Shown piece by piece: positions 12,276-33,035 of a stretch of DNA of 33,035 nucleotides. The stretch covers positions 1 through 33,035 of the forward strand of contig CABFPG010000016.1 in NCBI GenBank assembly GCA_902141825.1, written 5' to 3'. The translations under genes were made by a program, and so were the position numbers. This DNA is from Thalassocella blandensis. Its GTDB lineage: Bacteria > Pseudomonadota > Gammaproteobacteria > Pseudomonadales > Cellvibrionaceae. The stretch's first letter is position 1; the number at the start of each line of letters is the position of its first letter. The notes under the pieces are model-generated. The model did no database searches and was not told the DNA's origin. It worked only from the letters and a program-made list of their open reading frames with translations.

Positions 12276-12821
12276 TTATACGTCAAAGTTAGTGGTTAAA
12301 TAGTGTTTTATCTCTGAAGACTTTGGGTGTTGATCAAGCCACTGCTTAAAGGCGTCTACCTTGGCAAAGGCGTCTTCTCCTAATAATTCGGTATAATGTT
12401 TTTGCCAGTGCGCATGCTGGCGTTCAGCGCGAATTTTCTTCTGCCAGGCATCCGTAAATAATTCTGGAAGATGGTCCTGCATATCCAGTTGTTTTAGCAA
12501 TTGCCACTCACCACCGTCCAGCCAGGCTTCGTCACAATGTCCGCACAGTTCTATTCGGTTTTCGGAAGAAGCATCTATCTTAAACTTTGTCATGAGCTTA
12601 CTGCATTTTGGACACAGCTTCGCTCCTTTGCTGTCAATCGCGAGGTTATTGCCTTGTTCGGTAATGATCTGGTCGTCGCTTGGTTGAAAATGATCGAGCC
12701 AGTAACGATATTGAATGAGGGAAATAAGAACCCCATGGCAATTCTGACAGCCCGCTCCTATCAGCCCTTTCTCAATCTCGGCAGGTTGAAGATCTTCTTT
12801 ACTACACGTGGGACATTTCAT
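12276..12821 (-). CDS. Tandem zinc-ribbon protein (zf-TFIIB / PF13453-like x2)
   Basis: Two copies of CPxC...17-22 aa...C(x)xC followed by WLD.GE(L/W): CPTCSK...CQNCHG and CPKCSK...CGHCDEAWLDGGEW. Confidence 0.6.
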   Translation of the reverse strand: MKCPTCSKEDLQPAEIEKGLIGAGCQNCHGVLISLIQYRYWLDHFQPSDDQIITEQGNNLAIDSKGAKLCPKCSKLMTKFKIDASSENRIELCGHCDEAWLDGGEWQLLKQLDMQDHLPELFTDAWQKKIRAERQHAHWQKHYTELLGEDAFAKVDAFKQWLDQHPKSSEIKHYLTTNFDV

Positions 12822-12860
12822 ACTTAACTCCTTTTTAAAGCTTTAGCCGTTAAACTGACA

Positions 12861-13430
12861 CTAGGTTTTCCGCCCGCGTTTACGTGTCATGATATAAGCT
12901 GCAGCAATACCCGACAGCACGCCAAAAAAATGTGACTCAAACGAGACGCGTGGATCACCGGGTAATACACCATAAATCATTCCACCATAAAATACCGCCA
13001 CAAATATGGCAATCACGATATTCACAAAATTCTTTTGGAACCAGGCAATGGCGATGGATAAACTCCACAAACCAAAAATCCATCCACTCGCGCCGATATG
13101 CCCTGACGGCCTGGCAAACAACCAGACGAGAAGTCCAGTCAACACAATAATAATGAAGCTGGATTTAACATAAAAGGGCACCCCACGAATTAAAATCAGT
13201 GCGCTGAAAATGACAAAACCCAACAGGTTATTAATTAAATGACGCCAATCCCCATGCAACCAGGGTGAAGTCAATATATAGGGTAAAGTGTGGGGGTCAC
13301 GCGGCACCAAAGCAAACTGATTCAAGCTGCCTTCGAGCAATAAATTAAGTACATGCACACCTAACAAAATACAACATAAAGTAAACAGCAACTTGATCGG
13401 CTGCCTTTTGAAGGAGGACGAACCAGACAT
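12861..13430 (-). CDS. Rhomboid-family intramembrane serine protease
   Basis: 189 aa, 6 TM. Shows WLHGDWRHLINNLLGF (TM2 HxxxN motif), the catalytic GASG (HIGASGWIFG) and the TM6 His (SHFFGVLSGIAAA). The ATG abuts the stop of the giant gene. Confidence 0.8.
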   Translation of the reverse strand: MSGSSSFKRQPIKLLFTLCCILLGVHVLNLLLEGSLNQFALVPRDPHTLPYILTSPWLHGDWRHLINNLLGFVIFSALILIRGVPFYVKSSFIIIVLTGLLVWLFARPSGHIGASGWIFGLWSLSIAIAWFQKNFVNIVIAIFVAVFYGGMIYGVLPGDPRVSFESHFFGVLSGIAAAYIMTRKRGRKT

Positions 13431-16400: not shown

Positions 16401-18833
16401 CAGTACCAAAGGATCTGAAGCGAAGTACGTATTTAAAGGGTCTATTTCGGTAAACTTTGTGGAGCGACGCTCTATACTGACCAGCACCCGACTGGCCGCA
16501 TCTGCAATCGACTGGGCTTTTCGCTGACGGGTATCCAGCAGTTGCTGCTTATGTGATTCAAAGGTTTCATAAATTTCTTCGCGTTTGGTCATGATATCCG
16601 CGAGAAATTGATCATAATCTGAAAACTGGCTCTCAAGCTCTTCCAATTGCACCAGCAAGCGAGACATTTGCTCGTCGCAACTTTGCGGGTCGTCCGCCAT
16701 TCCCAAAGCATTAGTTATACTTTGTGAAAACAATTTAAATTGTGCAGAAAATTGTGCGACCGCCTCTTCTGACCCCAGATTTTTCTGCTTGTGGGTCGCG
16801 TTCGCTTTGCTTTGGTTTAATTTGCTATATACCGCGGAAATAGCATCCACAATATTGGTACGTAATGTTGTATCGTCAATTTTCAAAGAGGTGAGCAACT
16901 CAGATAGCAGATCCAGTCCAGCCGCAATGCTTTCTATCTGCTCAATCAGGGGTTTCAGCCGGGCATTGGTATCAGCCTCCGCGACTTCATGATTGAGTGT
17001 TTCTATACTGTCTAAATAGGGAGTGAGCGCATTTTCATCCGCGAGAAATTCTACAGTTTTTTCACTCAACTCCTGTTGAACTGTTATCAGTTCATCGTCC
17101 ATCACCGCGATTTTTTCTACGTCGATGTAACGATAGTCTTTTATCGTCGTTAAGTGTCCACGTTGATGACGAATTTCATCCAGTGCGGCAACATAATCTT
17201 CTACCGTACTCCAGGACGAGGTGCGAATTCGCGAAATAATCGCGCTCTGCTGTTCAGAGGCTTTTGCCAGTGCTTCAACAGATTGCTGACGAATGTCCTG
17301 CACTTTGGCAAATTCATCTATCGCCAGCTCTGCAGTCTGTGAAATTTCCTGCAGGATAGCGGGAATTTCTCCTACGGCTTTTTCAGACAACCAGTAATGA
17401 TCGTCAAAAGCTCTGCGTGAATCCTTACTCAACTCTTCGTAAAGACGTGAAGAAACACTTTGGTTTTCTATAACACGGCTGATACTGTATAAATCCGAAA
17501 TACCACGCACCAGAGCTGCATTACCAATGCGTCCAAAAAAGGACTGGCTCTCGGGTTGCTTACTGGCAAACTCGTCACTAAAAAAGGGGGTAACCCAGAT
17601 CTGCATTGGATGCACTCGGGTAGCATCTTTTTCCGCGGAAAAAATCACAAGCGTCCCGTCTTCAGCCAGTGCATACCCATGGCCGAGGATTGGATTCTGC
17701 AGGGTTTTACTTATCATGTTGTATGCAAGTAATGCCACTACACCATCTTCAGGTTCATAGAAAACAAATAAGACGTCTTCACCGTTGGGAGAGCGAATCA
17801 TCCGCTTGTATTTCAGTCCTGCAATTGCATCATCATAACTTTTGTGCTCGCCCGACTGAAGGTAATATCCACCAGGAAATACGATGCCATGATCTTCTGG
17901 CAGTTGTACACAGGATGCGCCGATGGCATCTATACGCGTGACTTTTTGTGTCAATGTATTAAATACCAGATATCGCCACAGCGTTTCCTGATAGGGCAGC
18001 ACTTTCAGTAAAATGAGATCGCCAAGCCTGGCGAAATGGAATTCGGCATCATCAATCGACTGGGTTTTATTCTCCACAGGTTCACTGTATATACCACGCC
18101 CTTCCTGAGTGTTGTTCTCCACTTTTACCGTGAGATCGCCGCCGTGTGTTTCCACAAAGATCGTGTCCAGAATATTAATATGTGGAAACTTTCCGTGAAT
18201 AACATCATCCCGGCCACAGGCAGTCCATTCAAAATCATAAGCGGGTGGCAATTGAATATCACGCTCACCGCGATTATCAATATACTTATCAACGGCGCCC
18301 TCTGGGGTTAAGGAAAATCGGAAAACCCGAATATCCTCTATTCGCTCACCTATTTGAAAGCCCAGCAACAACTTGCCATCTTTGATGGTGACTTCCTGAA
18401 TTTTGGTATGTTTGTAGTAGCGATAAAGTTCTTGAAAATCTTTATTAAAGTTTTTATCAGATAGAAACGTATCGGCTATATCCTGTTGTTGTACGGTGTA
18501 CTCATCGCCCTGCTTTACAAGTTTAAACAGCGAAAATACGTCTTCTATTTTGGTTTCTTTCTTCAGACCGATGAAGACGTTGTAGGCAAACAACAAATAG
18601 TTTCCGACCTGTACGATATCCCGGGCCACGCAATTGTTTTCCGTGCGCACACGAACTCGTGCAGCAACAGTGAGTTCCGACCCACCAAACTCTGCCAGAC
18701 GAGCCTCATTTAAAACTTTTATTTCAGCTGCAAGCGCATTTCCCTGGTCCGTTAATCGCTTTTTAATAACCTCATAAGCGCCTCCTTCAGCAACGGCCTT
18801 ATCGACTGTATTTTCTTTTACGGCTTCAGACAT
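13431..18833 (-). CDS. Giant (1800 aa) coiled-coil protein with an embedded MoxR/AAA_5-like P-loop ATPase domain; function unknown
   Basis: A single uninterrupted ORF. The ATPase core lies at residues about 1290-1430. It contains Walker A (SPPGYGKTT), Walker B (VMLYLDDIQH) and sensor-1 (VVMAGNPYTES), with arrangement and spacing like MoxR/dynein-type AAA_5. Long heptad-like E/K/Q/L-rich segments lie at about 560-900 and 1500-1800. The N-terminal 550 aa appear beta-rich and globular. Confidence 0.8.
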   Translation of the reverse strand: MSEAVKENTVDKAVAEGGAYEVIKKRLTDQGNALAAEIKVLNEARLAEFGGSELTVAARVRVRTENNCVARDIVQVGNYLLFAYNVFIGLKKETKIEDVFSLFKLVKQGDEYTVQQQDIADTFLSDKNFNKDFQELYRYYKHTKIQEVTIKDGKLLLGFQIGERIEDIRVFRFSLTPEGAVDKYIDNRGERDIQLPPAYDFEWTACGRDDVIHGKFPHINILDTIFVETHGGDLTVKVENNTQEGRGIYSEPVENKTQSIDDAEFHFARLGDLILLKVLPYQETLWRYLVFNTLTQKVTRIDAIGASCVQLPEDHGIVFPGGYYLQSGEHKSYDDAIAGLKYKRMIRSPNGEDVLFVFYEPEDGVVALLAYNMISKTLQNPILGHGYALAEDGTLVIFSAEKDATRVHPMQIWVTPFFSDEFASKQPESQSFFGRIGNAALVRGISDLYSISRVIENQSVSSRLYEELSKDSRRAFDDHYWLSEKAVGEIPAILQEISQTAELAIDEFAKVQDIRQQSVEALAKASEQQSAIISRIRTSSWSTVEDYVAALDEIRHQRGHLTTIKDYRYIDVEKIAVMDDELITVQQELSEKTVEFLADENALTPYLDSIETLNHEVAEADTNARLKPLIEQIESIAAGLDLLSELLTSLKIDDTTLRTNIVDAISAVYSKLNQSKANATHKQKNLGSEEAVAQFSAQFKLFSQSITNALGMADDPQSCDEQMSRLLVQLEELESQFSDYDQFLADIMTKREEIYETFESHKQQLLDTRQRKAQSIADAASRVLVSIERRSTKFTEIDPLNTYFASDPLVLKVREFVEALRKLDAQVKADDVEARFKAAKEQAVRVLRDKTDIYEDNGNVIKLGPRHKFSVNTQDLDLTIIPRDDALNIHLSGTDFFESIDDDDLIQLKPYWNVSLASESDSVYRAEFLAYSILKSAEKHENELSQDKLNQALLDRELMQKLVRDYAAPRYKEGYEKGIHDYDAALILMDLLPALNSAELLRFDPKCRGFAQVFWANIQRISEQLQNKRLTYETWIERAQAAEQMKDDFSSFEAHALLASEIRHAMMEFIRLHPMDVSALDISRAADYLVCELGRERAEFVSSKYARRLVEELRRSLNNESWRRFQMALEKMIGWPAERWNLSCAWLSALVNNKQLDALRRYIPEAAGLINADERIDRRSTEVDLEITVEGLMGEHPKLDKRCLHFAVDEFLLQLDEHAEVHLQNFQRYLQIRQDVIARERKSLRLHEFKPRPLSSFVRNRLINEAYLPIIGDNLAKQMGTVGDSKRTDLMGLLMMISPPGYGKTTLMEYVASRLGLIFMKINCPSLGHDVHSLDPQQAPNATARQELNKLNLALEMGNNVMLYLDDIQHTHPEFLQKFISLCDGTRRIEGVWKGDTKTYDMRGKKFCVVMAGNPYTESGEVFKIPDMLANRADIYNLGDILGGMDEQFALSYIENSLTSNAVLAPLATRDIKDVYLFVALAQGKDVATTDFNYQYSGAEINEIVDVLKKLFVIRDVILKINQQYIASAAQADKYRTEPSFKLQGSYRNMNKMAEKVSSVMNDAELMQVIADHYLGEAQLLTAGAEENLLKLAELRGNMTDKQAARWSEIKADFLRNKAMGGDEADTGMKVIGQLVDLVKTVDTIAQATAEMSKQGQSLSRMSREANALTKLQIKRLDSDKQELVPAQFDPQEFVSQTLNKIHDSIHASQQKIEVINQPVPGIDKLLQVLASTIESSIYPLVRSMDKKLEIDLRTHERMSDVSQQLRELEKQLKDGVLQKSTKGQSVKRKQEPNTNGGGV

Positions 18834-18896
18834 ATGTGTTCCCTTGCTCTTACTTTATATTGGATCTGCGAACTGATTAAACAGATTTGGTCCGAT

Positions 18897-19322
18897 TTAC
18901 TTATTTGCTGTGGAGGTTTGATCGGAGCTTTCGGACGATTTCTCGTCAGACGCTCGTAACTTTCGCGCGGCTTTTTCGCTGCATGACGAGGATTGATGCG
19001 AATTTACCAACCAATTCATTGTTACACCCAAAGCCGCTCCGATTCCCGCCCCCAGAAGAGCGTTTTGCAACGAGTTTTCGTTCTGCCCTGCTTTGCTGAT
19101 GCCAACACCAATACCTGCACCAATGCCCGCACCTATCCCAGCGGCAACTCCCGTTCTGGTACCCGTATTGGTCTTGACCTGCTCCCGCACGCTACCCAAT
19201 TTGCTGATTAATACATTTCTCAGTTCGGATGAGGTAACCAACTCCGTCAACCCCTGATTGTGCAATTCTTTTTGCAGCTGCTGAATTAAACTCGACAGCG
19301 GTACTTCACTTTGTTGTTTCAT
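18897..19322 (-). CDS. Glycine-zipper (GxxxG-repeat) small membrane protein
   Basis: 141 aa. GVAAGIGAGIGAGIGVGI ... LLGAGIGAALG, a classic glycine-zipper (YMGG-like) pattern. Confidence 0.6.
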   Translation of the reverse strand: MKQQSEVPLSSLIQQLQKELHNQGLTELVTSSELRNVLISKLGSVREQVKTNTGTRTGVAAGIGAGIGAGIGVGISKAGQNENSLQNALLGAGIGAALGVTMNWLVNSHQSSSCSEKAARKLRASDEKSSESSDQTSTANK

Positions 19323-19396
19323 AGGTTCGATCTATTTTATTTGTAAAGCTCTGCTTTACCGAACGCTGACTCACGTCAACGTTCGGCTGCTTCGGC

Positions 19397-21307
19397 TTAC
19401 TGCAACTCTTGCGAGTTTTGCGGTGCTCCAGCCATCACTTTGGCAAGAATGGCCTGAATAGTGCCGCTCTTTTCTGCCAGACCATCGACAGCCTTGCCGA
19501 TCGATAGCGACTTGGCAAAGTTATCAAAGAAGTGCTCTTCCCCACCGACAATATCGATTTTCGCTTTTTCCAGAGCCGTTGCCAGTACTTCGGCATTCTC
19601 TTTTGCAATATCTTTCCCAGCGTCAATCGAAGCCAGTGCTTCCTGCAGTGCAGTTTCCAGACTCATACGGAACTCTTCATGAGCTCTGGCCGCATCACTC
19701 ATACTGTTCATCGCACTGAACTTGTCCACCAGACCATCTGCTTCTGCTTTGAATTTCTCACGAATAACTTCAGCATCAGCCAATCCGGTTTCGCGTTTGG
19801 CTTTCGCCTCAGACTCACCTTTGAGCGCAACCACTTTCGCTTCTGATTCACCCTGTGCTGCCGTAATATGGGCTTTTGCCAAACCTTCTTTTTCCATGGC
19901 GTCGGCCATAGCTTCCTGCACTTTCGCTTCGGCTAGACCACTCGCGGCCTCTTCTGCCTGAATGCCTTCGGCGAGTTTCTTCTTCGCATCGGCTTCTTTC
20001 GCTGCCGCTTCCAGGTTCGCCTGGGCCATGGTTGTAATTTCCATCGCTCGGTGTTTGGCCGCCAGCTCTTCTGCTTCTGCACGCTTCACTTCTTTCACTT
20101 TTTCTTCTTCGGCCAACGCTTCCGCATCCAATACTTGCGTTTGCTTACGACGATCCGCTTCGGAAACCTCACGCACTTCTTTAATTTTCTCTTCTTCTAT
20201 CGCAACTGTCTTATCCACAGACACGCGCTCACGAATGACATTGGCAATTTCCTTTTTCTGTACCTCTACAGCTTTTTCAGCATCGATTCGCTGCAATTCC
20301 ACTTCTCTCTCGCGCGAGACAATTTCAAGATCTTTTGCTCGGGTGACCTTCTCAATTTCAATCACTACTGCACGCTGACGGTTTTGCTCCGCCACTTCGA
20401 TCTCACGTTGTTGATTCTCCTTCTGAACCGCCAGCTCCTGATCCGCCGCAATAGTGGCCGCTTCAGATTTCAAGCGCTCCTCTTCCTGCACTTTGACTGT
20501 TTCCGCCTCTTCGCGCGCACGAATGGTGGCGATTTCACGTTGTTGGCGAGCTTCAGCATCAGCTTGTTGTCGCTCGAGTTCAAGCATAGCCTCAACGGTT
20601 TCTACATTCTTTTTCTTGATAGCAAGCTCTTCATCGCGCTCAAAAATATTTGTTTGAACATTTTGAGCAGCCGTGAGTTCAGTGATTTTACGAATACCTT
20701 CAGCATCAAGAATATTGCTGGGGTCCAGAGAGGACTTCGGCGTTTGCTCCAGATAATCGATCGCAACATCTTCCAGCACATACCCATTTAAATCATTACC
20801 GATTACCTGAATGATTTTGTCACGAAACTGTTGTCTATCTTCAAACAGATTGACGAAATCAATTTGTTTACCGACAGTTTTCAGTGCTTCAGAAAATTTT
20901 GCATTAAATAATTCGTTGACAGCATCTTTATCCGATGCACGATTTGCACCCAGGGACTTTGCCACTTTTAAGACGTCTTCGGGGGTTTCGTTCACTCTCA
21001 AATAAAATGCAACGGTAATATCCGCCCGCATATTGTCACGGCAGATCAACCCATCTTTAGCTCGCCTATCCACTTCCATAGTGATCAATGAAATCCTCAT
21101 CAACTCTTTTTTATGGATGATTGGCAGTATCCAGGCGCCGGTGAAAAATACTTTTGGCTTTGGAGTCGTGTCGTTTTTAATCAGCGCCACACCTTGCTCT
21201 ACTTTCACATAGAAAGCTTTGTATAGTGCAGCGACAACCATTAAGAATAGAAATAACAGACCGATGGTGATTATCACCATAACAACATCTGGTGCAAACT
21301 CTGACAT
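19397..21307 (-). CDS. yqiK: Flotillin / SPFH (band-7) family protein, YqiK-like, with extended coiled-coil C-terminus
   Basis: 636 aa. N-terminal TM helix, then an SPFH domain (...ISLITMEVD...ITVAFYLRV...), then 350 aa of an E/A/K/R-rich coiled coil. AAGGAG RBS. Confidence 0.85.
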   Translation of the reverse strand: MSEFAPDVVMVIITIGLLFLFLMVVAALYKAFYVKVEQGVALIKNDTTPKPKVFFTGAWILPIIHKKELMRISLITMEVDRRAKDGLICRDNMRADITVAFYLRVNETPEDVLKVAKSLGANRASDKDAVNELFNAKFSEALKTVGKQIDFVNLFEDRQQFRDKIIQVIGNDLNGYVLEDVAIDYLEQTPKSSLDPSNILDAEGIRKITELTAAQNVQTNIFERDEELAIKKKNVETVEAMLELERQQADAEARQQREIATIRAREEAETVKVQEEERLKSEAATIAADQELAVQKENQQREIEVAEQNRQRAVVIEIEKVTRAKDLEIVSREREVELQRIDAEKAVEVQKKEIANVIRERVSVDKTVAIEEEKIKEVREVSEADRRKQTQVLDAEALAEEEKVKEVKRAEAEELAAKHRAMEITTMAQANLEAAAKEADAKKKLAEGIQAEEAASGLAEAKVQEAMADAMEKEGLAKAHITAAQGESEAKVVALKGESEAKAKRETGLADAEVIREKFKAEADGLVDKFSAMNSMSDAARAHEEFRMSLETALQEALASIDAGKDIAKENAEVLATALEKAKIDIVGGEEHFFDNFAKSLSIGKAVDGLAEKSGTIQAILAKVMAGAPQNSQELQ

Positions 21308-21332
21308 GGCTAAGCTCCTTTTATAGCTTTGT

Positions 21333-22019
21333 TTAGATTTTAAATTCTTGCTCAGAAATAACTTTATAAATATTTTCTTCCGCTACGTACTCCAGCAGCA
21401 CTATTTTATCTCCCCGTTTAAACTCCTCTTCACTTTTATATGATCTCACCTTCACAATCAGTCCTGCGCCTCCATCGTTCACTGTGGCTTCGCCAAATTC
21501 AGTATTTACAATAGAAGTTCTTACTAGCGCCGATTGACCGACTATCACTTTCTGCACTTCCTGATGCGCAGTTTTGAAAAAATCACGAAAAGGATTGAGC
21601 AATTTCCCTGTAATCATGGCAGCAGCATACAGGACGCCAACCAACACCGCTAAAGCGACAATAAATTGCACAATTCCATCAGGTATAAAATGGAAAGTAT
21701 ATTCTACGATGAGAAAACTTAGAATCCAGCCGATTAAACTTACCAGAAAAAATACAAGCGGCATGGGAATACCAACCAAGCCCAGACGCATCATAATCCC
21801 GGCTAAAACATGGCTGCTGGTCAAGCCTTCAGAGCCATCTAACCCGCCGTCAATATCAGGACCATCAAAGTTCAAAAAATCCAAATCAATCAGACCTAGA
21901 ACTGCAATCAAGCCAAAGAACGTAAATAAGATTAGTAGACAAGTAAAAACAATGACAGGAAATGTCAAAATAATATTATAGAAAGGGTCCATTGCTTCAG
22001 TGAAAAAAATTGCAAACAT
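21333..22019 (-). CDS. yqiJ: NfeD/YqiJ-like inner-membrane protein with C-terminal OB-fold
   Basis: 228 aa. Four to five TM helices, then a soluble C-terminal beta domain (GQSALVRTSIVNTEFGEATV...GDKIVLLEY). This is the canonical flotillin partner and sits 25 bp upstream of it. GGAGG RBS. Confidence 0.7.
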   Translation of the reverse strand: MFAIFFTEAMDPFYNIILTFPVIVFTCLLILFTFFGLIAVLGLIDLDFLNFDGPDIDGGLDGSEGLTSSHVLAGIMMRLGLVGIPMPLVFFLVSLIGWILSFLIVEYTFHFIPDGIVQFIVALAVLVGVLYAAAMITGKLLNPFRDFFKTAHQEVQKVIVGQSALVRTSIVNTEFGEATVNDGGAGLIVKVRSYKSEEEFKRGDKIVLLEYVAEENIYKVISEQEFKI

Positions 22020-22517
22020 TTACGTCCTCCGTATGCACACCATTGCTATATCAGCAATATTTTTTGTTGTTATTATCAGGTTTAAATTCCATAACAAACA
22101 ACCTAGTCCAGCAGGAATGGCAGGTTATTCGCAGGAATGTTAATTTAAACACTCCACTCGATACCACCTCTCTTTTGATTCTCTCAAATATATCCTCCAG
22201 AGAAAATCATCCATTTAAGCTTCCTGGACCGCCTGTTACAACCTGAAAAATTGATTCGTCCGTGAATCCTGACATCCCTTTTCCTCCTTTCCTTACGACA
22301 ACTCTCCCACTATATCTGAAAGGGTCTTTGCCTGGATATGCGTTTTTAGAACCACCGTAAATGCCAGACAAACTCCTACAACTCCTGTAACCTTGCTGCA
22401 GCAACATTTCCATAATATCGCTACATGAAACAGTTCCGTCCTGTAAACCGTTTTTCCTCCGTGATCCTCTTGCGTCCAATCCCATTCAGATTTTGTTACA
22501 TTCGAATACGCCTGGCG

Positions 22518-23201
22518 TTATCGCTTTTTCAGACGATCAAGCACATCTTGAGCACTTTTCCCCGTTGAAACAATGCCGGCTTGCTGTAGCTTTTGCTGCA
22601 ATGAGTCCTCCGAAGTCTCTTTGGACAGTTCACTCGCTGCCTGCATCTGAGCAGCTTTAAGTTGCTGCTTTTCCTTGATGCGCTCTAAAGACTCCATTGC
22701 GGTTCTCAACTTTGAATTTGTTCCACTGTGACGCTCCGCTACAGCAGCTTGCGCACGCTGAACATTTTCAGTCGCCTTCACCGTGTCTACCTGCTGCTTC
22801 AAGCGTTTGATATTCTGATCGGCCAGTTTTATGGCACCGCGCAATTCATTCGCACTGACCTCATAATTTGTAGCAGCTTCTTTTTCAGACTGCAGCTGGT
22901 TTTCAAAATCAGCAATTTTTTGTGCAACCTCCAAAGCTAGCGCCTCGTCATTTTTACTTAAGGCCTGCTCTGCGTACCCCTCATACTCACTGATAGTATT
23001 TGTTAACTGAGTACATTTTTCTTCCGCAAGCTTTTGCCTTGCAATGATGGTGGCCAACCCATCTTTCGACTGCTTCAGCTCTTCCGTTGCCTCTCTGACT
23101 TCCTGGTCAAGAATGCGTAAGGCTTGTGAATCTACAATGGCCTCACCAGCTTCGTTCACACCGCCACGAAGAGCGGTCATCATCTTTTCCCAAATATTCA
23201 T
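22518..23201 (-). CDS. pspA: PspA/IM30 (Vipp1, ESCRT-III-like) family protein, YjfJ-like
   Basis: 227 aa, all-helical. N-terminus MNIWEKMMTALRGGVNEAGEAIVD, heptad pattern and length match PspA/YjfJ. AGGAGAGG RBS. Confidence 0.8.
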   Translation of the reverse strand: MNIWEKMMTALRGGVNEAGEAIVDSQALRILDQEVREATEELKQSKDGLATIIARQKLAEEKCTQLTNTISEYEGYAEQALSKNDEALALEVAQKIADFENQLQSEKEAATNYEVSANELRGAIKLADQNIKRLKQQVDTVKATENVQRAQAAVAERHSGTNSKLRTAMESLERIKEKQQLKAAQMQAASELSKETSEDSLQQKLQQAGIVSTGKSAQDVLDRLKKR

Positions 23202-23217
23202 CTTCCTCTCCTCAAGC

Positions 23218-23889
23218 TCACGCCTCTACAGGCTGCTTTAAAAAATTGCTATAAGCTTCGGTTGCCTGAATTACGTTTGATGCCAACACTTCAATCTCAA
23301 AAACAATATTGGGCAAGACCGAAGATGCACTTAACGCACCAAACATCTGATAATAATCCTTTCCGTTAGTCAGCGTATCCAGACTAATAGTTGAAAGAGG
23401 AAAGTATTTATGAGTCCGCAACACAGCCTCATTAAATGCACTAACATCTTTCACCTCGTCCACCGACCACAAAACAGCCTCTACGATAATCTGATCACCC
23501 GACACGGTGAGAAACAAAGGCAAATCACCCACTTCATGCATTATCAGATGTATGGCCGGCTCGATACCGTCAATCAACTCTATGCTCGCTAACTCACCAT
23601 TAAACAGCGGCTCTGAACAAAGCGCTTCGTATAACCCTGAGGTGGTCCAACGTTTAATTTCTGCCATCATCCAATCTCCTTTTTGTATTGATCGTGTGGA
23701 TATTGCGCTCTCGTGCACGCTTCCAGTCAACGCCAGATCATCCGCCACTTTTGCACGCAATTGCTTCTCGTATTTCGCCAGATACTCAGCATTTTCGGGC
23801 AAGATCCAAACTTCCTTCTTCACCAGGCCCAATTCGCGTAACCGGCGGCGATATTCTCTCTGGTAATGTGCTGATGATTTTGGCTTCAT
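23218..23889 (-). CDS. yjfI: DUF2170 (YjfI-like) protein with 90-aa basic N-terminal extension
   Basis: The C-terminal 130 aa resemble E. coli YjfI, the partner of yjfJ/pspA-like genes. The N-terminal extension is Arg/Lys-rich (QREYRRRLRELGLVKK...). The 16-bp gap to pspA supports co-transcription. Confidence 0.55.
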   Translation of the reverse strand: MKPKSSAHYQREYRRRLRELGLVKKEVWILPENAEYLAKYEKQLRAKVADDLALTGSVHESAISTRSIQKGDWMMAEIKRWTTSGLYEALCSEPLFNGELASIELIDGIEPAIHLIMHEVGDLPLFLTVSGDQIIVEAVLWSVDEVKDVSAFNEAVLRTHKYFPLSTISLDTLTNGKDYYQMFGALSASSVLPNIVFEIEVLASNVIQATEAYSNFLKQPVEA

Positions 23890-23907
23890 GTGAGTAACTC
23901 TACCCTG

Positions 23908-23964
23908 TTACATGTAATAGGTCAATAAAATTACATGTAAACATGTATAAAACATTACATGTAA
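23908..23964. promoter_or_regulatory. Operator-like array: three perfect 10-bp palindromes TTACATGTAA (plus one degenerate copy) at 23-24 bp phasing
   Basis: Read directly at 23908-23917, 23931-23940 and 23955-23964; degenerate AACATGTATA at 23940-23949. Sits in the 92-bp gap immediately upstream of the yjfI-like start. Confidence 0.55.
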
Positions 23965-23981
23965 GAAAATAAATTAAATAA

Positions 23982-26168
23982 TTATATATATTTCAATAAC
24001 TTAAACTTAAATGCCCTGGCAAGCAGGAGGTCAGGAAACACTTTGCACCGACTGTTATATTCTTCCACTGCATCGTTATAACCTTGCCGCAGCACAGCAA
24101 TTTCATTTTCCAGATGTGTAAGCTGCTGAATCAATTTCGCAGTAAGGCTGTGGGCCTTGAGTTGCGGATATGCTTCCACCACCGCCGTCGCCTGATGCAC
24201 CAGATGCTCTAGATCTCCCTGTGCCGCGCTATCGACACTAATCGCTGACCACTGCCGACGCATATCCGCCACAGTTCGCAATAGTGCCTCTTCATGCTGC
24301 ATGAACTTATGGGCAATTTTATTAAGGGCAGGCACTAGATTCTTCCGTTTCCGTAACGCAACCTCAATGTTAGCCCGGTTCCGCATCGCTCTTTTTCGCA
24401 GAAATACGAGATCGTTGTAATGCAGGATTATCATCAGATTCAGGAGAAACACCGGCGACAGCATGGCGGCAAACAAAAAATCCGTGGTTGCAAAGCGACC
24501 ATTTAAGCCGAGCCAGGCCAGCACAAAGTAAAGGCCCGCACTATACGCAAGAGTCAACAATGCCAGCCCTGCGCGCGCCTTACGCAAAAGAAGTGCCCGC
24601 TCTGTTAAGTTCGACAGCAGGTACAAAGATTTTTTACCCGCCTCTCTCATACACAATCTATCATCCTGCTTCATATCAATCGCCACAGGACCAAGCGCAT
24701 ATAAGGAATCCTGTGACGCCAGCCATTCAACAAAGTAGTGGCGGCTACCGCGATATTGGCTTTCGCTGTGTTTTGAAATTACTTCTGCCTTCGCGGGATA
24801 AATCTTCAGCGAGCCACTCTCATCCACACACAAAAATGGAACGGCCTCTTTCCTATCCTCAATGGTCACCCAACGGGTTTTCCCACCACTACTTCGCTTC
24901 TCTTTGACCCGGTAGCGGTACCACATACATGGCACGCCGGCCAAAGGCGCTTCCAGAGTCCTGGAATTTATAGCCTCGACACGCCCCAACACCTCATTCA
25001 ACCCACAACTCACACCGACTACTTTACTGGTCCGAATATTTTCGATGGCCCGCTTAACAAATATAAGCTTCACTCCAAAAAACACTGCGAGTACAGCCAC
25101 CAACGCCGATATCCCCATAATCCATATCCCGGAAACAGACGACAAAGCGACATCATCAAGCCCCCGTTTTCGCTCCTGCAACAACTCAAGCTCCTGAGGC
25201 GAGATAACCACCTCTAATGCGGGTAATGAGATTTGCCACAGCGGCGCCAACCATCGCTCGGGTATTCGCTGAAACTGTTGATGCAATTGGGTGTGTGACA
25301 TTGCCAATGCCAAACGCATTTCACGAGATTGCAAGGCATCAATCGCATTTTGCCTCAGCGCCACCTCTACCGCCGCCTGCTGTTTGTCATACCGCTCGAC
25401 GGCGTTGTGCAAATCAGCCTTCATCATTAACAGCGACAACTGCACTAGAACCAAGGCTACCGTAACCGCAATAATGCTGATAAACACCAGCACACGATGA
25501 ATACCGAACATGCAAACCAACGCATAGATAGCCACACAGCTCAGCGTCAACCCAAGCCATAAACGAAATAATACTGATGCACCTATTTTCCCCAGCACCG
25601 ATGCCGAAGAATTCGTGGTTATGACAGGATTGTATTGACCGGCCTGACGAAAGCCCAACGACATGCCATTTGAGCGGGATTCCGCAAAGCCAAAAGCCAC
25701 CAGCTGCTGACCGGGATCTATGCGATATTCGGTGTGACGGGTAGAACCGTCAGTACGTGTAAAACTGCGTGCAACCTGCCATTCAATATGTGATTGGTCA
25801 CGCTGACTCAGCAATTGAATTACCGCTGTAGAATCTCGCAGGGCTATCGTCGACGCACGACGAATATTTTCAACGGTTTTCCAGCTTGTATTACCATCAG
25901 AATCACGCTCTTCTACTTCGCGTATGTATTGAAAATATAGACAGGGGGTTTGAGTGAAATGACTTGCTATTGTCGCCCCCTCAGCAGTACCAGCCACTTT
26001 GACCTCGCCAGGTAGAACCGCAATATTGCGCGTGAGCGGAATACGCTCCATTTGTCGAAGCTGCTGTAGTGTTTCAAACCCTTGCGAAGTAAAAAAAACT
26101 GCTCCCGCGCCCCCCAACCCGGCGGACAACAGTAAAACCAACCACCACCTCAAAGACATTCGTGCCAT
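23982..26168 (-). CDS. Membrane protein: duplicated GIDE-like domains fused to a C-terminal LemA domain
   Basis: Internal duplication: TPCLYFQYIREVEERDSDGNTSWKTVE aligns with VPCMWYRYRVKEKRSSGGKTRWVTIE. Each copy is preceded by TM helices. The C-terminus matches the LemA family (...NLVPALNKIAHKFMQHEEALL...VEAYPQLKA...NEIAVLRQGYNDAVEEYN...FPDLLLARAFKFK). Start set at the Met before the signal/TM segment. Confidence 0.65.
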   Translation of the reverse strand: MARMSLRWWLVLLLSAGLGGAGAVFFTSQGFETLQQLRQMERIPLTRNIAVLPGEVKVAGTAEGATIASHFTQTPCLYFQYIREVEERDSDGNTSWKTVENIRRASTIALRDSTAVIQLLSQRDQSHIEWQVARSFTRTDGSTRHTEYRIDPGQQLVAFGFAESRSNGMSLGFRQAGQYNPVITTNSSASVLGKIGASVLFRLWLGLTLSCVAIYALVCMFGIHRVLVFISIIAVTVALVLVQLSLLMMKADLHNAVERYDKQQAAVEVALRQNAIDALQSREMRLALAMSHTQLHQQFQRIPERWLAPLWQISLPALEVVISPQELELLQERKRGLDDVALSSVSGIWIMGISALVAVLAVFFGVKLIFVKRAIENIRTSKVVGVSCGLNEVLGRVEAINSRTLEAPLAGVPCMWYRYRVKEKRSSGGKTRWVTIEDRKEAVPFLCVDESGSLKIYPAKAEVISKHSESQYRGSRHYFVEWLASQDSLYALGPVAIDMKQDDRLCMREAGKKSLYLLSNLTERALLLRKARAGLALLTLAYSAGLYFVLAWLGLNGRFATTDFLFAAMLSPVFLLNLMIILHYNDLVFLRKRAMRNRANIEVALRKRKNLVPALNKIAHKFMQHEEALLRTVADMRRQWSAISVDSAAQGDLEHLVHQATAVVEAYPQLKAHSLTAKLIQQLTHLENEIAVLRQGYNDAVEEYNSRCKVFPDLLLARAFKFKLLKYI

Positions 26169-26312
26169 AATGCTTCCTTCTCCACTCTGCTTTTGCATGC
26201 GCCGCGCAATAAATCTAACCTGTGCATTCGGACGTATACCCTTGCACCTGACTTTATGCACTCACACATTTACAATGTAAACACACTATAAGCAGCGAGA
26301 GTAAGTATTCGC

Positions 26313-27458
26313 GTGAAATATAAAAACTCCGACAATTTCCAACACCACCAGGCTGATAAAATTGGTGTATTACTAAGCAACCTGGGCACTCCAGAAGCAC
26401 CCACAGCCAAAGCCCTGAAACCCTATCTCAAACAGTTTCTGTCTGACCCACGAGTGGTCGAAGTTCCGCGTCTGCTATGGTGGTGCATCCTGAATGGAAT
26501 AATTCTGCGAACGCGCCCTAAACGTTCGGCCGAGGCCTACGCATCCGTTTGGACAGAGGAGGGGTCACCACTTTCTATCATCACCAGACAACAAGCGGAA
26601 AAAGTGCGAGCAAAGCTACAGCACCAACACCCATCGATCGACATAGCCTGGGCAATGCGTTATGGCAAACCCGCAATTGCCGAAGGCATCCAAACCCTGA
26701 TTGATAATGGCGCCCGCAAAATTCTGGTACTTCCACTGTATCCACAATACTCAGCAGCTACAGTTGCCTCCACATTCGACGCGCTGGCACAGGACTTTAC
26801 TCATCGGAGATGGCTACCCGAACTTCGGTTTATTAACAGTTATCACGATTACTCTCCCTACCTGAAAGCGCTCAGCCAAAGCATAGAACAACACTGGGAA
26901 ACTCACGGTAAACCACAGAAGCTGATTTTTTCCTACCATGGTGTACCGCTGCGGTATTTACACAACGGCGACCCCTATCATTGCCAGTGCTTAAAAACAT
27001 CCCGCCTGATCGCCGAGCATCTCGGTTTAAATGATGACGAGCACATGACGACATTTCAGTCGCGATTTGGAAAAGAAGAATGGTTAAAACCTTACACCGA
27101 TGACACCATGAAATCACTGCCAAAGCAGGGCATAAAATCAGTACAGGTGATCTGCCCGGGGTTTTCCGCGGACTGCCTGGAAACTATTGAAGAAATTGGT
27201 GAAGAAAATCGCGAATACTTTATCGCTGCCGGTGGGGAACAATACACTTATATTCCCGCCCTAAACGACAGCGAGCCCCACATCGAAGCGCTATGTCAAT
27301 TGATCCAAAAGAATTTACAGGGATGGCTGGACGATCCAACCTTGCCAATAACCCCAACAAACACCACAACCCAAGACAGCTCAGATGATCAAACCGCTGA
27401 ACTGATTGCACGCGCTAAGCGAGCTGAACAATGCCCATATAATAAGCCCTCTACTTGA
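26313..27458 (+). CDS. hemH: Ferrochelatase
   Basis: Collinear with E. coli HemH (recalled): GVLLSNLGTPEAPT, LKQFLSDPRVVEVPRLLWW, VLPLYPQYS, FSYHGVP, FQSRFG, CPGFSADCLETIEEI. GTG start. Carries a 45-aa polar C-terminal extension. Confidence 0.9.
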   Translation: MKYKNSDNFQHHQADKIGVLLSNLGTPEAPTAKALKPYLKQFLSDPRVVEVPRLLWWCILNGIILRTRPKRSAEAYASVWTEEGSPLSIITRQQAEKVRAKLQHQHPSIDIAWAMRYGKPAIAEGIQTLIDNGARKILVLPLYPQYSAATVASTFDALAQDFTHRRWLPELRFINSYHDYSPYLKALSQSIEQHWETHGKPQKLIFSYHGVPLRYLHNGDPYHCQCLKTSRLIAEHLGLNDDEHMTTFQSRFGKEEWLKPYTDDTMKSLPKQGIKSVQVICPGFSADCLETIEEIGEENREYFIAAGGEQYTYIPALNDSEPHIEALCQLIQKNLQGWLDDPTLPITPTNTTTQDSSDDQTAELIARAKRAEQCPYNKPST

Positions 27459-27543
27459 CGCCGCGTGCTTTGTTTAATTTTTGAATAGCTCCATATTTTA
27501 TTCAAAATATATACTACGCAGAACGCACCCGCATACAACAACA

Positions 27544-28300
27544 TTAGAGCACACAAGAAGTCTCGAGCCATTTACTAAAAATTTTCCTGGCATTTACTTT
27601 AGGTGTTGCGATTTCATGGTTTGGTACAAGCAGGTACTGCGGAATGGCTGAATGCGGACACATTTTTGTTAGCAGTTGATATTCCGCTAAGCATGCATTT
27701 AACTTACTGATGAGTATCGACAAAAGCAAACTTGATTGAATGAGTTGGTGTTTTAAAGTTTCTGCGCTAGCTACCTTGATTTTTTATACAAACCTAATGC
27801 TTAGTAAGAGTTTTGCAGCCAGCTCAAATATTGTAAGTCAAAAGGCAGCAAAACAATGGCGGAAGATGCTATAACATTTTATAAAGGCACAGAGTATTAC
27901 GTCGTATACCGCACAAAGAATTTTACAAATATTCAGCTGTACTCAACGTTATAAATCAATCAGATCGAACACGATTGTTAGGCTTAAACTCTATCGTTTG
28001 ATCTTTTTGGTTGAATTCAATCGCTTCTGGTCTTATTGACCCCCTCCCTGAGAAGAATCGTTCGGTCCTTATTGCCCTACTGTTAAATACCATTAAAGAA
28101 TTTCTGTCAAAATGAATCTCTTGAATTCTTAAACGCAAACATTCAGATACTCACAACCCATCCCATAAAGAAGCGCGATAATCAGCTTATCTCTTTCCTT
28201 GAGTTCTTCAAGAGTGGCGGCAACTTCGGATGGCGAGAGAATCCCGAGTATACGACGCAGTCTCTTTGCCAATGTAAAACCCGAATCACCAAATTTAATG
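27544..28300 (-). pseudogene. intI: Integron integrase (intI) pseudogene: nonsense mutation plus frameshift in Box I, decayed termini
   Basis: Minus-strand translation of 28150-28299 gives ...LAKRLRRILGILSPSEVAATLEELKERDKLIIALLYGMG (tyrosine-recombinase Box I; IntI has [11 protein letters not shown]). The continuation is in another frame: GL*VSECLRLRIQEIHFDRNSLMVFNSRAIR (IntI has [28 protein letters not shown]). No intact 320-aa ORF. A weaker C-terminal remnant lies at 27544-27729. It is divergent from the cassette array, as in integrons. Confidence 0.55.
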
Positions 28301-28899
28301 TTGAAATATTTTTAGGTAAAGAAACTCTAAAATATTCAAAATAACTTTCTGTGTATTTATCGCAATGTTTTTAACAGCCAAGCAGGTAAGAAAACTCTTG
28401 ATATTTGAACGCCCATTTCATTTAGCTGACGCCTATTGTTGAAATGAAGAAAAAGCCGAATCCAGTACAAATATGTTTTTCAGCAGGGATACTAAAGCCC
28501 CACAAACACAAATCCGCCCTGACGGATTCAATAAACTTACTAGACATAGCGCTAACTTCTGAAACGCAAATCATGTATATACATACAGCTATATTAAAAA
28601 GGAAGCGAGAAGACTTCAATTTTTTACTCGGTTTGCCAACTAAACTATGCTAAGTTATTCCTACTTTAACCCCTCAAAAAAATTAAAATCGCTTTATAAT
28701 CAATAGCTTATTCTAGAAGGACGGGGAGATAGTCCGCACGCTCAAAAGTGCAAAACCGCGCATGCGCAATTTTCTGCAAACAAGGAATGTTCAATTCGTA
28801 TTTTATTTCTTGTTTTTCAGTAACTTGACTTGATCATCTAGAAAATAGGTGAGGTGCATATTGCGCATGCGATATATACAAATGTTAGGGCTCTGCGAT

Positions 28900-29364
28900 A
28901 TGAAGTACCTTTTTCTATCAATAGCAGTAACCATATGTGGGTGTGCATCCAATACGATTGAAAATATTGATTTTAAAGAGTGGTACCCTATCGGATATGA
29001 AGGATTTCTGGAATCAATAAACTTATCTTCAGGTTCAAATGTTGAAAATTGTGGCTTTCACGACTTAATGACCGAAGAGGGAAAAAAGAGTGTTGAGTAC
29101 GGATACAAGTGCGCAAGACAAAATGCTAATGCTGGAAAACCATTTAAGTTTGGTACGGTACGATTACCTATTGATTCTTTCGCATTTGAGATCTTAATAG
29201 GGACAGCGGATAGCGAATACTGGCTCGTGGTTTATGATGTTATGATTGACGGAGATGCTCCTCAGCAATGGGCAAAGAAATGCAACTCAATTAAGTTCAG
29301 TCGAAAAAACCAAGATTACGAAGGTAAAAGGTGCGGTGAAATCAATAGCGAAGTATGGCCCTAA
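28900..29364 (+). CDS. Cassette 1: small lipoprotein, unknown function
   Basis: MKYLFLSIAVTICGC|AS lipobox. The TAA stop is embedded in the attC R'' box (CCCTAAC). Confidence 0.55.
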   Translation: MKYLFLSIAVTICGCASNTIENIDFKEWYPIGYEGFLESINLSSGSNVENCGFHDLMTEEGKKSVEYGYKCARQNANAGKPFKFGTVRLPIDSFAFEILIGTADSEYWLVVYDVMIDGDAPQQWAKKCNSIKFSRKNQDYEGKRCGEINSEVWP

Positions 29365-29475
29365 CAAGCGCTTCCAGCCTGACGCCAAAACCTCCGCGTT
29401 TTTGTGTTACTCGCTGCGCTCAAACATTAACACAAAAACACTCCAGCTTTGGCGCAGCTGAAGCGGGCGTTAGTG
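29359..29475 (+). other. attC site 1 (117 bp)
   Basis: R'' GCCCTAAC, R' GTTAGTG. L''/L' arms GCGCTTCCAGCCTGACGCCAAAA and TTTGGCGCAGCTGAAGCGGGC pair with bulges. Confidence 0.75.
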
Positions 29476-29511
29476 TTCACAATGCATCCCACACTATATA
29501 AGGAATAATAT

Positions 29512-30018
29512 ATGGCTGAATACAAAGGATCGGAAGATGTATTTAAGGAGCTTGTAGAAGATTCCGAAGAAAACTGGCTTTACGGTTTGGTTGCATTTGC
29601 AATCATAGAGGAGCGTAGGTTCGAGTGGATGAAACACTTTGAGTCTCACAATCAAATCCCTCCTTCCGAAGCGGAAATTCAAAACTGGTATAAGCAGCAA
29701 CCTCGTAGCGAAATAATTCGGGCTAAAGGAGAAGCCGAAAGCGCGCTACAAACGTATGCGTCTGAGGTAATCGACGTGGCTCTGGAGGAAAAATCAACGA
29801 AAATCGAAGAGGGAATTATAGTTTCAGAAATCAGGGAATCGAGGAGGTTTTGGCCTCAATTTGGAGTAAACTTCATAGGTGGTTTGGCGGCATCTGTTGT
29901 GTTTGCTGCATTACTTATTTTATTGGCGTTCTTTGTATTAAATGACACGTCTCCTGCTGAGATTGGTTCTCATCTAAAGCATGGCTTAGAGGAAGGTAAT
30001 CATGGTCAAGAAAACTGA
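29512..30018 (+). CDS. Cassette 2a: hypothetical protein with C-terminal TM helix
   Basis: 168 aa. Good AAGGAA RBS. Acidic soluble N-terminal part, one TM near the C-terminus. Confidence 0.55.
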   Translation: MAEYKGSEDVFKELVEDSEENWLYGLVAFAIIEERRFEWMKHFESHNQIPPSEAEIQNWYKQQPRSEIIRAKGEAESALQTYASEVIDVALEEKSTKIEEGIIVSEIRESRRFWPQFGVNFIGGLAASVVFAALLILLAFFVLNDTSPAEIGSHLKHGLEEGNHGQEN

Positions 30019-30256
30019 AGTAACTGGAAAGAAGGCAGCTTCCGCAGCATCAAAAGTATTAAGAAATCCGAATTCTAGTAAAGCAGCGAAGTCAGCTGCG
30101 GGTTCAGCGCTTTCACAAACTAAATCTCCGCCAAAGGTGACTTCAAAAAAAGCTGCCACAGCTGCGTCTAAAACTCTACGAAGTAAAAGTACGAGTAAAA
30201 CTTCAAAAACTGCAGCGGGTTCAGCTTTAACCCAGCGTCCAAATAAGAAAAAATAA
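30002..30256 (+). CDS. Cassette 2b: Lys/Ala/Ser-rich histone-H1-like basic repeat protein
   Basis: 84 aa. Two 30-aa repeats (KKAAsAASKvLRN..SK.aKsAAGSAL.Q). Overlaps the preceding ORF by 17 bp. Confidence 0.5.
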   Translation: MVKKTEVTGKKAASAASKVLRNPNSSKAAKSAAGSALSQTKSPPKVTSKKAATAASKTLRSKSTSKTSKTAAGSALTQRPNKKK

Positions 30257-30370
30257 CACTAACAAGGCAGTCAATTTGACAGCTATTCCGTCGCTTGTTT
30301 TTGGTGGCGGTCGCTACGCTGCCACCAAAAACAATCAACTACATAGCTGCAAATTACTGCGGCGTTAGTG
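30257..30370 (+). other. attC site 2 (114 bp)
   Basis: R'' CACTAAC directly after the stop, R' GTTAGTG. L'' GGCAGTCAATTTGACAG and L' CTGCAAATTACTGCGGC. Central hairpin TTGGTGGCGG...GCCACCAA. Confidence 0.75.
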
Positions 30371-30650: not shown

Positions 30651-30763
30651 GCACTAACAATTACAACCAGCGACGCCCGTGCCTGCGGCACCGGCTGGAC
30701 AGCCAAAACTGCGCGCTACGCCCGCAAAAACGTTTTGGCTGCCGCTGTTGAAGGGCGTTAAGC
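30651..30763 (+). other. attC site 3 (113 bp), closing an apparently non-coding cassette (30371-30763)
   Basis: R'' CACTAAC, R' GTTAAGC. Arms CAGCCAAAACTG and CGTTTTGGCTG. No convincing ORF in the 280 bp before it. Confidence 0.65.
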
Positions 30764-31216: not shown

Positions 31217-31285
31217 GCTTAACAAAAATGTCAATTTGACCTCGTTACGCTTCGCTCCACTCGGCAAATTACATTGGCGTTATGG
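31217..31285 (+). other. attC site 4 (69 bp)
   Basis: R'' GCTTAAC, R' GTTATGG. Arms ATGTCAATTTGACC and GGCAAATTACAT. Confidence 0.6.
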
Positions 31286-31420
31286 TGTACCGTGCAGAAA
31301 ATTAAGCGACGTGGGAGCATATAGCTTGCAGTTCAAGCTTGTGGAATACAACCTGTAAACGTGGCTATATTTGGTCGCAAAAAGGTTACGAAGGTGGATG
31401 GACGAGGAAGAGTTTTCGAT

Positions 31421-31489
31421 TTAAGTAAGAGCCGTGCCGGGGCCGATGAACTTTAGTTCGCATCGGACTGAGGCACGGCTCTTACTTAA
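31421..31489. repeat. 18-bp perfect inverted repeat (TTAAGTAAGAGCCGTGCC / GGCACGGCTCTTACTTAA) with nested 6-bp stem in the 33-nt loop
   Basis: Read directly. Inner stem CCGATG/CATCGG. No flanking T-run. Lies inside cassette 5, 195 bp upstream of its ORF. Confidence 0.8.
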
Positions 31490-31683
31490 AGCGTTTCCTC
31501 GCATCGTTCTCTCCTTGAAATTTTCTGCACCGGATAAAGTCCTCGGGGACTGATTGCTGCACATGAATTTACTGTTATGCTAACAGCAAAAATGTGCGAA
31601 TATCGTGGACGCACATAACAACGCACTCTCAGCGACAGCAAAAAATGCTGCGCTTAAGTTAATCGTTATGCACTTAAAAAGGA

Positions 31684-31965: not shown

Positions 31966-32030
31966 ATGTATAACAAGGCAGTCAAACTGACGCCACGTGC
32001 TGCCCAATACACGAATACACTTTAACAAGA
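31966..32030 (+). other. Possible short/degenerate attC site 5
   Basis: TGTATAAC R''-like box and hairpin GTCAAACTGAC, but no clean GTTRRRY box before the next RBS. Weaker than the others. Confidence 0.35.
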
Positions 32031-32687: not shown

Positions 32688-32759
32688 AGCTAACAAGGCC
32701 AGCCAGAGGGACAGCCAAACCGCTGCGCGTTTTGTCTGCCCCTGCTGGCGGCGTTGGTA
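32688..32759 (+). other. attC site 6 (72 bp)
   Basis: R'' AGCTAAC, R' GTTGGTA. Arms GGCCAGCCAGAGGGACAGCCAAAC and GTTTTGTCTGCCCCTGCTGGCGGC pair imperfectly. Another attC start (GTCCTAACGCCGCCGGGGG) appears at about 32988 at the window edge. Confidence 0.7.
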
Positions 32760-33035
32760 TGACACCCCTTGTCAATAAAAACAAAGAAATCCTCTAACTA
32801 AAAATAGTTAGTGTCCGAATAAATAGGATGAGTTATTGCAGTAGATGAAGCCAGTAAACTCGTCGGTTATCATGCTGGTATTCGTGGGTTGCAAGAAAAT
32901 ACTCCTGCCTATCCGACCTTACTATTTCCGTCGAGATGCCTATCTTCAGTCTATGCTCGTGGTTTGAATGTCGATGACATTCACCGTCCTAACGCCGCCG
33001 GGGGTTGCACCTCCACCGGGGCTTGATCCGCCGCA

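Follow-up and report, generated by a model that had tools for sequence, protein, structure and literature searches.

The cassette array of Thalassocella blandensis, a marine gammaproteobacterium of the family Cellvibrionaceae, is headed by what is very probably left of a chromosomal integron integrase gene (intI) that would have been SOS-regulated, and we show that no integrase can be produced from this remnant. The window analysed is one entire contig of the draft genome, 33,035 bp long, and six proteins encoded on it match deposited T. blandensis proteins exactly. On its minus strand, from 28547 to about 27989, three reading frames jointly spell the first ~190 residues of IntI, an extent delimited by tblastn, a custom IntI HMM, frameshift-aware alignment and the TIGR02249 model. 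The remnant contains the N-terminal SAM-like domain and the early catalytic domain, and stops just before the IntI-specific extra domain. The original prediction had put the gene at 27544-28300, which misses its beginning and overshoots its end: 82 codons at the start of the gene are situated above 28300, and the 445 nt of 27544-27988 carry no intI signal.

Several searches agree on the identity of the remnant. For the stitched 184-aa reading the best NCBIfam model was TIGR02249, 'integron integrase' (115 bits, E 4e-33, positions 2-172 of 315), followed by XerA_Arch as the next unrelated model (69 bits), XerD (43 bits) and XerC (40 bits); the score falls short of the full-length cut-off of 265 for TIGR02249 because just half of the protein is present. 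The same reading passed the Pfam cut-offs for PF13495 and PF00589, the latter with coverage of positions 9-76 of 172. When six IntI proteins (five of them full-length) were compared with the 33 kb by tblastn, the remnant was the sole locus matched, with E-values down to 2e-18, and the window thus held no second intI or other recombinase that these queries could find, including any intact intI beside the array. These results bear out the original prediction, which had recognised Box I of an integron integrase on the minus strand, expected a translated search to find IntI similarity there, and named an intact intI elsewhere beside the array as evidence against it. The custom HMM aligned to the remnant over profile positions 1-178, frameshift-aware alignment with the protein P0001 gave 95 identical residues out of 183, and the nearest database proteins are integron integrases from marine gammaproteobacteria, Cellvibrionales among them.

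Within these ~190 codons the damage totals six single-base frameshifts and one stop codon. The frameshifts were counted by frameshift-aware dynamic programming against four IntI proteins, five being common to all four alignments and the sixth (~28031) coming from the longest alignment alone. Located by the alignments and by sequence context, they span 28031-28480 on the minus strand and lie at ~28474-28480 (an A6 run reduced to A5), ~28397-28409, ~28300-28312 (in an A5 run), 28151-28156, 28077 and ~28031. At four of them a single base has been lost in net terms, and at two a base has been gained; at least two fall within A-runs, as in GAAAAAC, where GAAAAAAC would give back EKTYLYWI. The longest open reading frames left in the remnant are 47-65 aa long, against an unbroken frame of ~320 codons as the norm for IntI.

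Two of these lesions lie in the Box I region (28100-28173, minus strand), as read from the sequence and aligned to intact IntI. The translation gives ...ILGILSPSEVAATLEELKERDKLIIALLYGMG (Box I stretch LLYGMG) in one frame and L, a stop and VSECLRLRIQEIHFD in the next, where intact relatives have LMYGSGLRVSECLRLRVQDIDF. The stop, a TGA at 28153-28151, occupies the codon of the Box I catalytic arginine, a column (R134) at least 95% conserved among 120 intact IntIs, and the in-frame TGA proposed earlier in place of a conserved residue is therefore real. A 1-nt change of frame was likewise rightly suspected, but the deficit lies at ~28156, directly before the TGA and not after it. The catalytic tetrad has thus lost its Box I arginine to a stop, while Box II (His-x-x-Arg and Tyr) is undetectable.

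Substitutions have accumulated alongside the indels. At the 63 near-invariant columns (at least 95% conserved in the 120 intact IntIs) the remnant keeps 42 residues and has 21 substituted, whereas the intact proteins each keep at least 59. Its identity to 141 retrieved IntI-family proteins averages 47% and reaches 54% at most; over the corresponding N-terminal half these same proteins share ~65% of residues with the reference IntI P0004. The GC content is 0.38 in the remnant and 0.46 in the rest of the contig. The original prediction that the gene had been inactivated by a nonsense codon and a frameshift in Box I was right in that the gene is dead, and no observation speaks against a pseudogene, but these are just two among many lesions and the decay was understated. 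It had also described both terminal parts as further decayed, which holds unevenly: the N-terminal part, with three further frameshifts, is still well recognisable, and the C-terminal half is undetectable.

Between the hemH stop codon and the remnant lies an AT-rich stretch (27459-27988, GC 0.37) without intI similarity on either strand. The C-terminal ~130 residues of IntI, which would hold the IntI-specific extra domain and the catalytic His, Arg and Tyr residues, could be detected neither by profile nor by frameshift-aware alignment nor by DNA comparison. Searching six frames of 27300-28800 with the IntI HMM gave no match past profile position 178. The C-terminal 132 residues of three IntIs aligned to both strands of 27459-27995 with scores of 30-36, compared with 29-30 +/- 4-5 for shuffled sequences (30 shuffles per protein and strand), and in blastn with the intI DNA of three relatives collinear matches were confined to the 5' half. 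An 'FSHS' in 27459-27995, found by eye and resembling FRHS, was no better than chance and was rejected. The IntI patch between patches II and III (...ALxRKYPxA...W.FxFP...), which intact relatives carry, is absent from the remnant. The remnant lacks the features that define IntI (extra domain, catalytic residues and intact frame), but its descent from an IntI is clear.

Because the 3' half is the better conserved one in intact genes and has nevertheless left no trace, we infer that it was lost through deletion rather than through point decay. Instead of being deleted and replaced, it may have decayed or been scrambled in place: the 530 nt that separate the remnant from hemH would accommodate roughly the missing half together with an intergenic spacer, and their GC content of 0.37 matches the 0.38 of the remnant.

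Upstream of the remnant, 44 nt before the intI ATG (28547), is a LexA-box-like sequence, CTGTATGTATATACAT (28573-28588, minus strand). No other sequence in the window comes within two mismatches of the LexA consensus CTGTATATATATACAG, and none did in 100 shuffles. The two mismatches of this element to the 16-mer include one in the right arm (ACAT for ACAG). The looser pattern CTGT-N8-ACAG with one mismatch allowed was not enriched in the window, so that specificity is limited to the fuller 16-mer. Canonical CTGT-N8-ACAG boxes occur at -34 to -52 in five of six distinct intI loci of relatives, and the element would be a putative, LexA-box-like operator at the position homologous to those boxes, with one arm mutated.

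On the other side of the intergenic region, GTTAGGG (28884-28890, plus strand) lies 11 nt ahead of the ATG of the first cassette ORF. We considered it as the R' end of an overlooked attC and rejected this, as no attC-type hairpin forms upstream; for the same reason it is regarded as a candidate attI crossover core. A consensus scan of both strands of 27300-29600 gave no sigma-70-like promoter (6.5 +/- 2.7 in shuffled sequences), and hence no obvious Pc or PintI, although such a scan cannot exclude a promoter. The intI-attI region also holds two exact inverted copies of TTGCGCATGCG, at 28759-28769 (minus) and 28861-28871 (plus), 91 nt apart. They are the only two copies in the window, even at one mismatch, and could be a candidate protein-binding site of the attI or promoter region.

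The remnant diverges from a plus-strand array of at least seven attC sites, called by sequence (TAAC...GTTA cores) and by bottom-strand folding against shuffled sequences; the divergent orientation described earlier is therefore that of a genuine attC array. Of the six full-length plus-strand sites, five are more stable than their shuffled counterparts (z -3.3 to -8.5), four of them with paired R boxes; in the well-formed hairpins the TAAC/GTTA boxes pair, the spacer is bulged and there are extrahelical bases. The first cassette ORF (28901-29364, a 154-aa gene call in Logan) encodes a predicted lipoprotein (MKYLFLSIAVTICGC...) with no Pfam match. It is followed by attC 1 (29361-29473, with TAAC at 29362-29365 and GTTAG at 29469-29473; bottom-strand hairpin -29.9 kcal/mol, z -4.5) and by attC 2 (30259-30368; -36.2 kcal/mol, z -8.5), which has paired R boxes, a bulged spacer and extrahelical bases. 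In attC 3 (30654-30762; z -3.5) the R boxes do not pair at minimum energy, and the centroid structure pairs them only in part. The short attC 4 (31219-31284, 65 nt) shares its R''/L'' and L'/R' ends with attC 2 and pairs its R and L boxes, with an energy no better than that of shuffles (z -0.8). Hairpins also form at attC 5 (31615-31671, 57 nt; z -3.3) and attC 7 (32690-32757; -23.5 kcal/mol, z -4.6).

Two sites depart from this pattern. Only the R''/L'' half of attC 6 is present (31970-31992); it matches the left end of attC 2 at 90% identity and forms no hairpin; the absence of its right half fuses the cassette of a 93-aa ORF with the following cassette of a 175-aa ORF. At the very end of the contig, the R' side of an inverted attC (TAACGCCGCC; 32984-33035, minus strand) runs off the sequence. 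It is the reverse complement of the CGGC-GTTA ends seen in other attCs, pairs with the R' end of attC 2, and reads TAAC-GCCGCC where every plus-strand attC reads TAAC-AA. This site marks either a segment inverted within the array or the end of another, convergent one.

Two cassettes have features of their own. The one at ~31284-31668 has no convincing ORF and no Rfam match (nor has the window as a whole any Rfam match), and contains a near-perfect 22-bp inverted repeat (31417-31438 and 31472-31493, 95% complementary). Upstream, at 30002-30256, an 84-aa ORF rich in Lys, Ala and Ser, with an internal 60-nt repeat (30140 and 30200) and no Pfam match, overlaps the end of a 168-aa ORF, and their shared cassette may carry two genes.

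The flank opposite the array consists of hemH and ordinary chromosomal genes, and no transposon genes were found in the window. The hemH gene itself (26313-27458, plus strand; PF00762, E 1e-118; VUD69372.1 of T. blandensis) encodes a ferrochelatase that extends ~40 residues C-terminally past the Pfam domain. Its nearest relatives are the ferrochelatases of 'Alteromonas indica' (67%) and Marinobacter (about 65%); those of Cellvibrio and of a Cellvibrionaceae MAG are farther away (55-59%), despite the Cellvibrionaceae host. On the minus strand of 12276-26261 there is a long run of co-oriented genes for a Zn-ribbon protein, a rhomboid, a DUF3686/AAA protein (1800 aa), a flotillin-like protein (636 aa, annotated YqiK), PspA/IM30, a DUF2170 protein and a LemA-GIDE membrane protein (759 aa), which looks like a Psp-type membrane-stress or membrane-remodelling cluster.

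Could intI be intact in the organism, its stop and frameshifts being sequencing or assembly errors? Two of the frameshifts do lie in A5 runs, where indel errors readily arise, and apparently only one read set exists; even so, we find this barely conceivable. The Logan assembly of run ERR3367803, made by an independent assembler, is 100% identical to the window over 16313-28746, which bears on the assembly error that the original prediction wished to see excluded. Because Logan was probably built from the reads of the deposited genome, this identity excludes assembler error at the remnant and does not address systematic read error. The lesions themselves do so: read errors cannot account for six indels within 560 nt, for the replacement of 21 near-invariant residues and for the loss of ~130 C-terminal codons without trace, and the neighbouring hemH and LemA-family gene are intact, so that the sequencing-error reading is effectively refuted already. 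The pieces of the Logan assembly (L081, L087 and L088) break off close to attI (28746) and at attCs (~30388, 30697 and 32777), showing that the attC repeats fragment short-read assemblies here, and probably explaining why the deposited contig stops at 33035. Logan contigs gave no extension of the array beyond that end, being shorter and broken at attC sites.

We regard it as very improbable that the remnant stems from another tyrosine recombinase, XerC/XerD-like or a phage integrase, that happened to lie beside repeats. The defining extra domain between patches II and III is unseen, its region being missing, and Xer models do match weakly, yet TIGR02249 leads the next unrelated model by 46 bits and XerD by 72. 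Moreover, those matches to the stitched remnant that were named or inspected belong to the IntI family, the full-length ones with the IntI patch (e.g. LPYALDRKYPKAY...WAFIFPS in P0004), an attC array follows, and the position, divergent orientation and LexA box fit integron architecture. An IntI remnant could still owe its uneven survival, with ~50% identity in the 5' half and the 3' half gone, to selection for cassette promoter or regulatory sites in the 5' half, as with Pc inside intI1 of class 1 integrons, the 3' half being free to go; the LexA-like site and the two exact inverted 11-mers persist upstream. This we consider improbable, as a third of the near-invariant residues are gone from the half that was kept, which has also suffered many indels, no sigma-70 consensus promoter was found in 27300-29600, and a single deletion accounts for the asymmetry without selection. 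A weightier objection accepts the death of the local integrase and denies that the array is frozen, another IntI, encoded elsewhere in the genome or past the contig end, working on it in trans. Most of the attC sites are still well formed, and the terminal inverted attC could belong to the end of a further, convergent array that has an intI to itself. Multiple intI genes occur in ~20% of integron-bearing bacteria (PMC2426708), and half of CALINs lie in IntI-encoding replicons (PMC4889954). Set against this, a protein collection containing T. blandensis proteins held no close paralogue (the best match to the stitched remnant, at 52%, was metagenomic), and one truncated attC has been neither repaired nor removed. 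No T. blandensis IntI was among the best 120 of 7991 matches to an intact IntI, too few to be informative. On these grounds activity in trans seems unlikely, though far from negligible.

Decay of a local intI, the reading we prefer, can be set against the intact genes of relatives. The remnant belongs to the marine gammaproteobacterial IntI group, in which intact, LexA-regulated integrases are the rule (PMC3108266). It is of the same subfamily as the intact IntI of Porticoccus, Zhongshania, Sinobacterium and a Cellvibrionaceae MAG, with 47-54% identity over the N-terminal half, and its upstream layout resembles that of intact IntI genes from marine Cellvibrionales and gammaproteobacteria, which have a LexA box 34-52 nt before the ATG. 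Unlike the remnant, those genes are full length (317-324 aa) and lie at other chromosomal sites, for example beside his genes or a Hachiman-type HamA/helicase pair. There is no shared synteny around the closest IntI relatives, whose contexts differ and of which none adjoins hemH. Conversely, in 80 other species, with hemH at most 67% identical, no intI lies within 10 kb of that gene; the intact intI that the original prediction thought possible at this locus in related strains was not found in these species. P0001, the protein nearest to the remnant (52% identical; L082, a Logan contig of the metagenome SRR25639990), has its intI at 314-1189 onward, split by a single frameshift, with the remaining C-terminus (KRVNCHTFRHSFATH...IYTHV...) running on in another frame; the P0001 locus is either another young intI pseudogene or a metagenome assembly error.

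Inactivation of intI is common. Nearly one third of intI genes carry stops, frameshifts or large indels (PMC2426708), and in a second survey 43-46% were inactivated, correlating with loss of the LexA site (PMC3108266). The locus resembles the 'pseudo-integrons' of Xanthomonas and scattered Proteobacteria (Nemergut et al., 2008, PMC2426708; Cambray et al., 2011, PMC3108266), in which an intI with stops, frameshifts and a large deletion heads a chromosomal array, and as in them the loss of the integrase would go with damage to a LexA operator. Typical pseudo-integrons have one or two lesions; the T. blandensis remnant is more eroded, with the N-terminal ~60% of the gene recognisable. As with intI2 of class 2 integrons (cited in PMC2426708), the integrase contains a nonsense codon while the integron around it can still be recognised, but intI2 has one suppressible stop and is otherwise intact, whereas here suppression cannot rescue a gene that is multiply frameshifted and lacks its catalytic half.

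The element also resembles a CALIN, a cluster of two or more attC sites that has no integron integrase nearby (Cury et al., 2016; IntegronFinder, PMC4889954): it has at least seven attC sites and, within 4 kb, no integrase that could function. IntegronFinder identifies an integrase by PF00589 over more than half its length together with the intI_Cterm profile (PMC4889954), and the same requirements governed the published screen of CALINs for pseudogenes, which found them near 15 of 279 (PMC4889954). With a PF00589 match covering just positions 9-76 of 172, the remnant would be missed by that screen; as the C-terminal region is absent too, the element would be scored by IntegronFinder as a CALIN without a recognisable pseudogene, a full-length IntI HMM having stood in for the intI_Cterm profile in our assessment. 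The description of the locus as a 'CALIN in the making' was apt as regards the loss of the integrase, but by the IntegronFinder criteria it is a CALIN already. Published CALINs differ in that here the pseudogene, if only its N-terminal half, is still visible. Loss of intI is one of the routes proposed for the origin of CALINs (PMC4889954).

We infer that intI was inactivated long ago and would have drifted neutrally since, becoming enriched in AT. The truncated attC and the drift towards AT fit prolonged disuse, and the gene is an old relic rather than a recent knock-out. Without its own integrase, both attC x attC excision and attI x attC insertion would stop, and cassettes would be neither captured nor reordered; the array would then act as a fixed chromosomal stretch (CALIN) unless another IntI in the cell acts on it. 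From the sequence it is plausible that the cassettes may be frozen, as had been proposed, but the original prediction claimed more about their immobility than the sequence supports.

As dead integrases are common in bacterial genomes, the locus is an ordinary new example of a well-known phenomenon. Pseudogenes of which only the N-terminal part is left escape detection by C-terminal profiles, and surveys may therefore undercount CALINs that arose by loss of intI in place; 95% of CALINs have been reported to lack an integrase pseudogene (Cury et al., 2016; PMC4889954). Such N-terminal relics might even be frequent, many 'orphan' CALINs then being integrons that decayed in place and not cassettes inserted at secondary sites, an idea that we hold tentatively and think possible if rather doubtful. 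If it were true, the present locus would illustrate such in-place decay, its operator, attI region and array having stayed in register. In a more speculative variant, the 5' half would survive by still carrying the regulatory sites of the cassettes. For T. blandensis itself the finding has little importance past annotation: its array beside hemH is one without an integrase of its own, and its cassettes are best regarded as ordinary chromosomal genes, probably static, as long as no further IntI comes to light.
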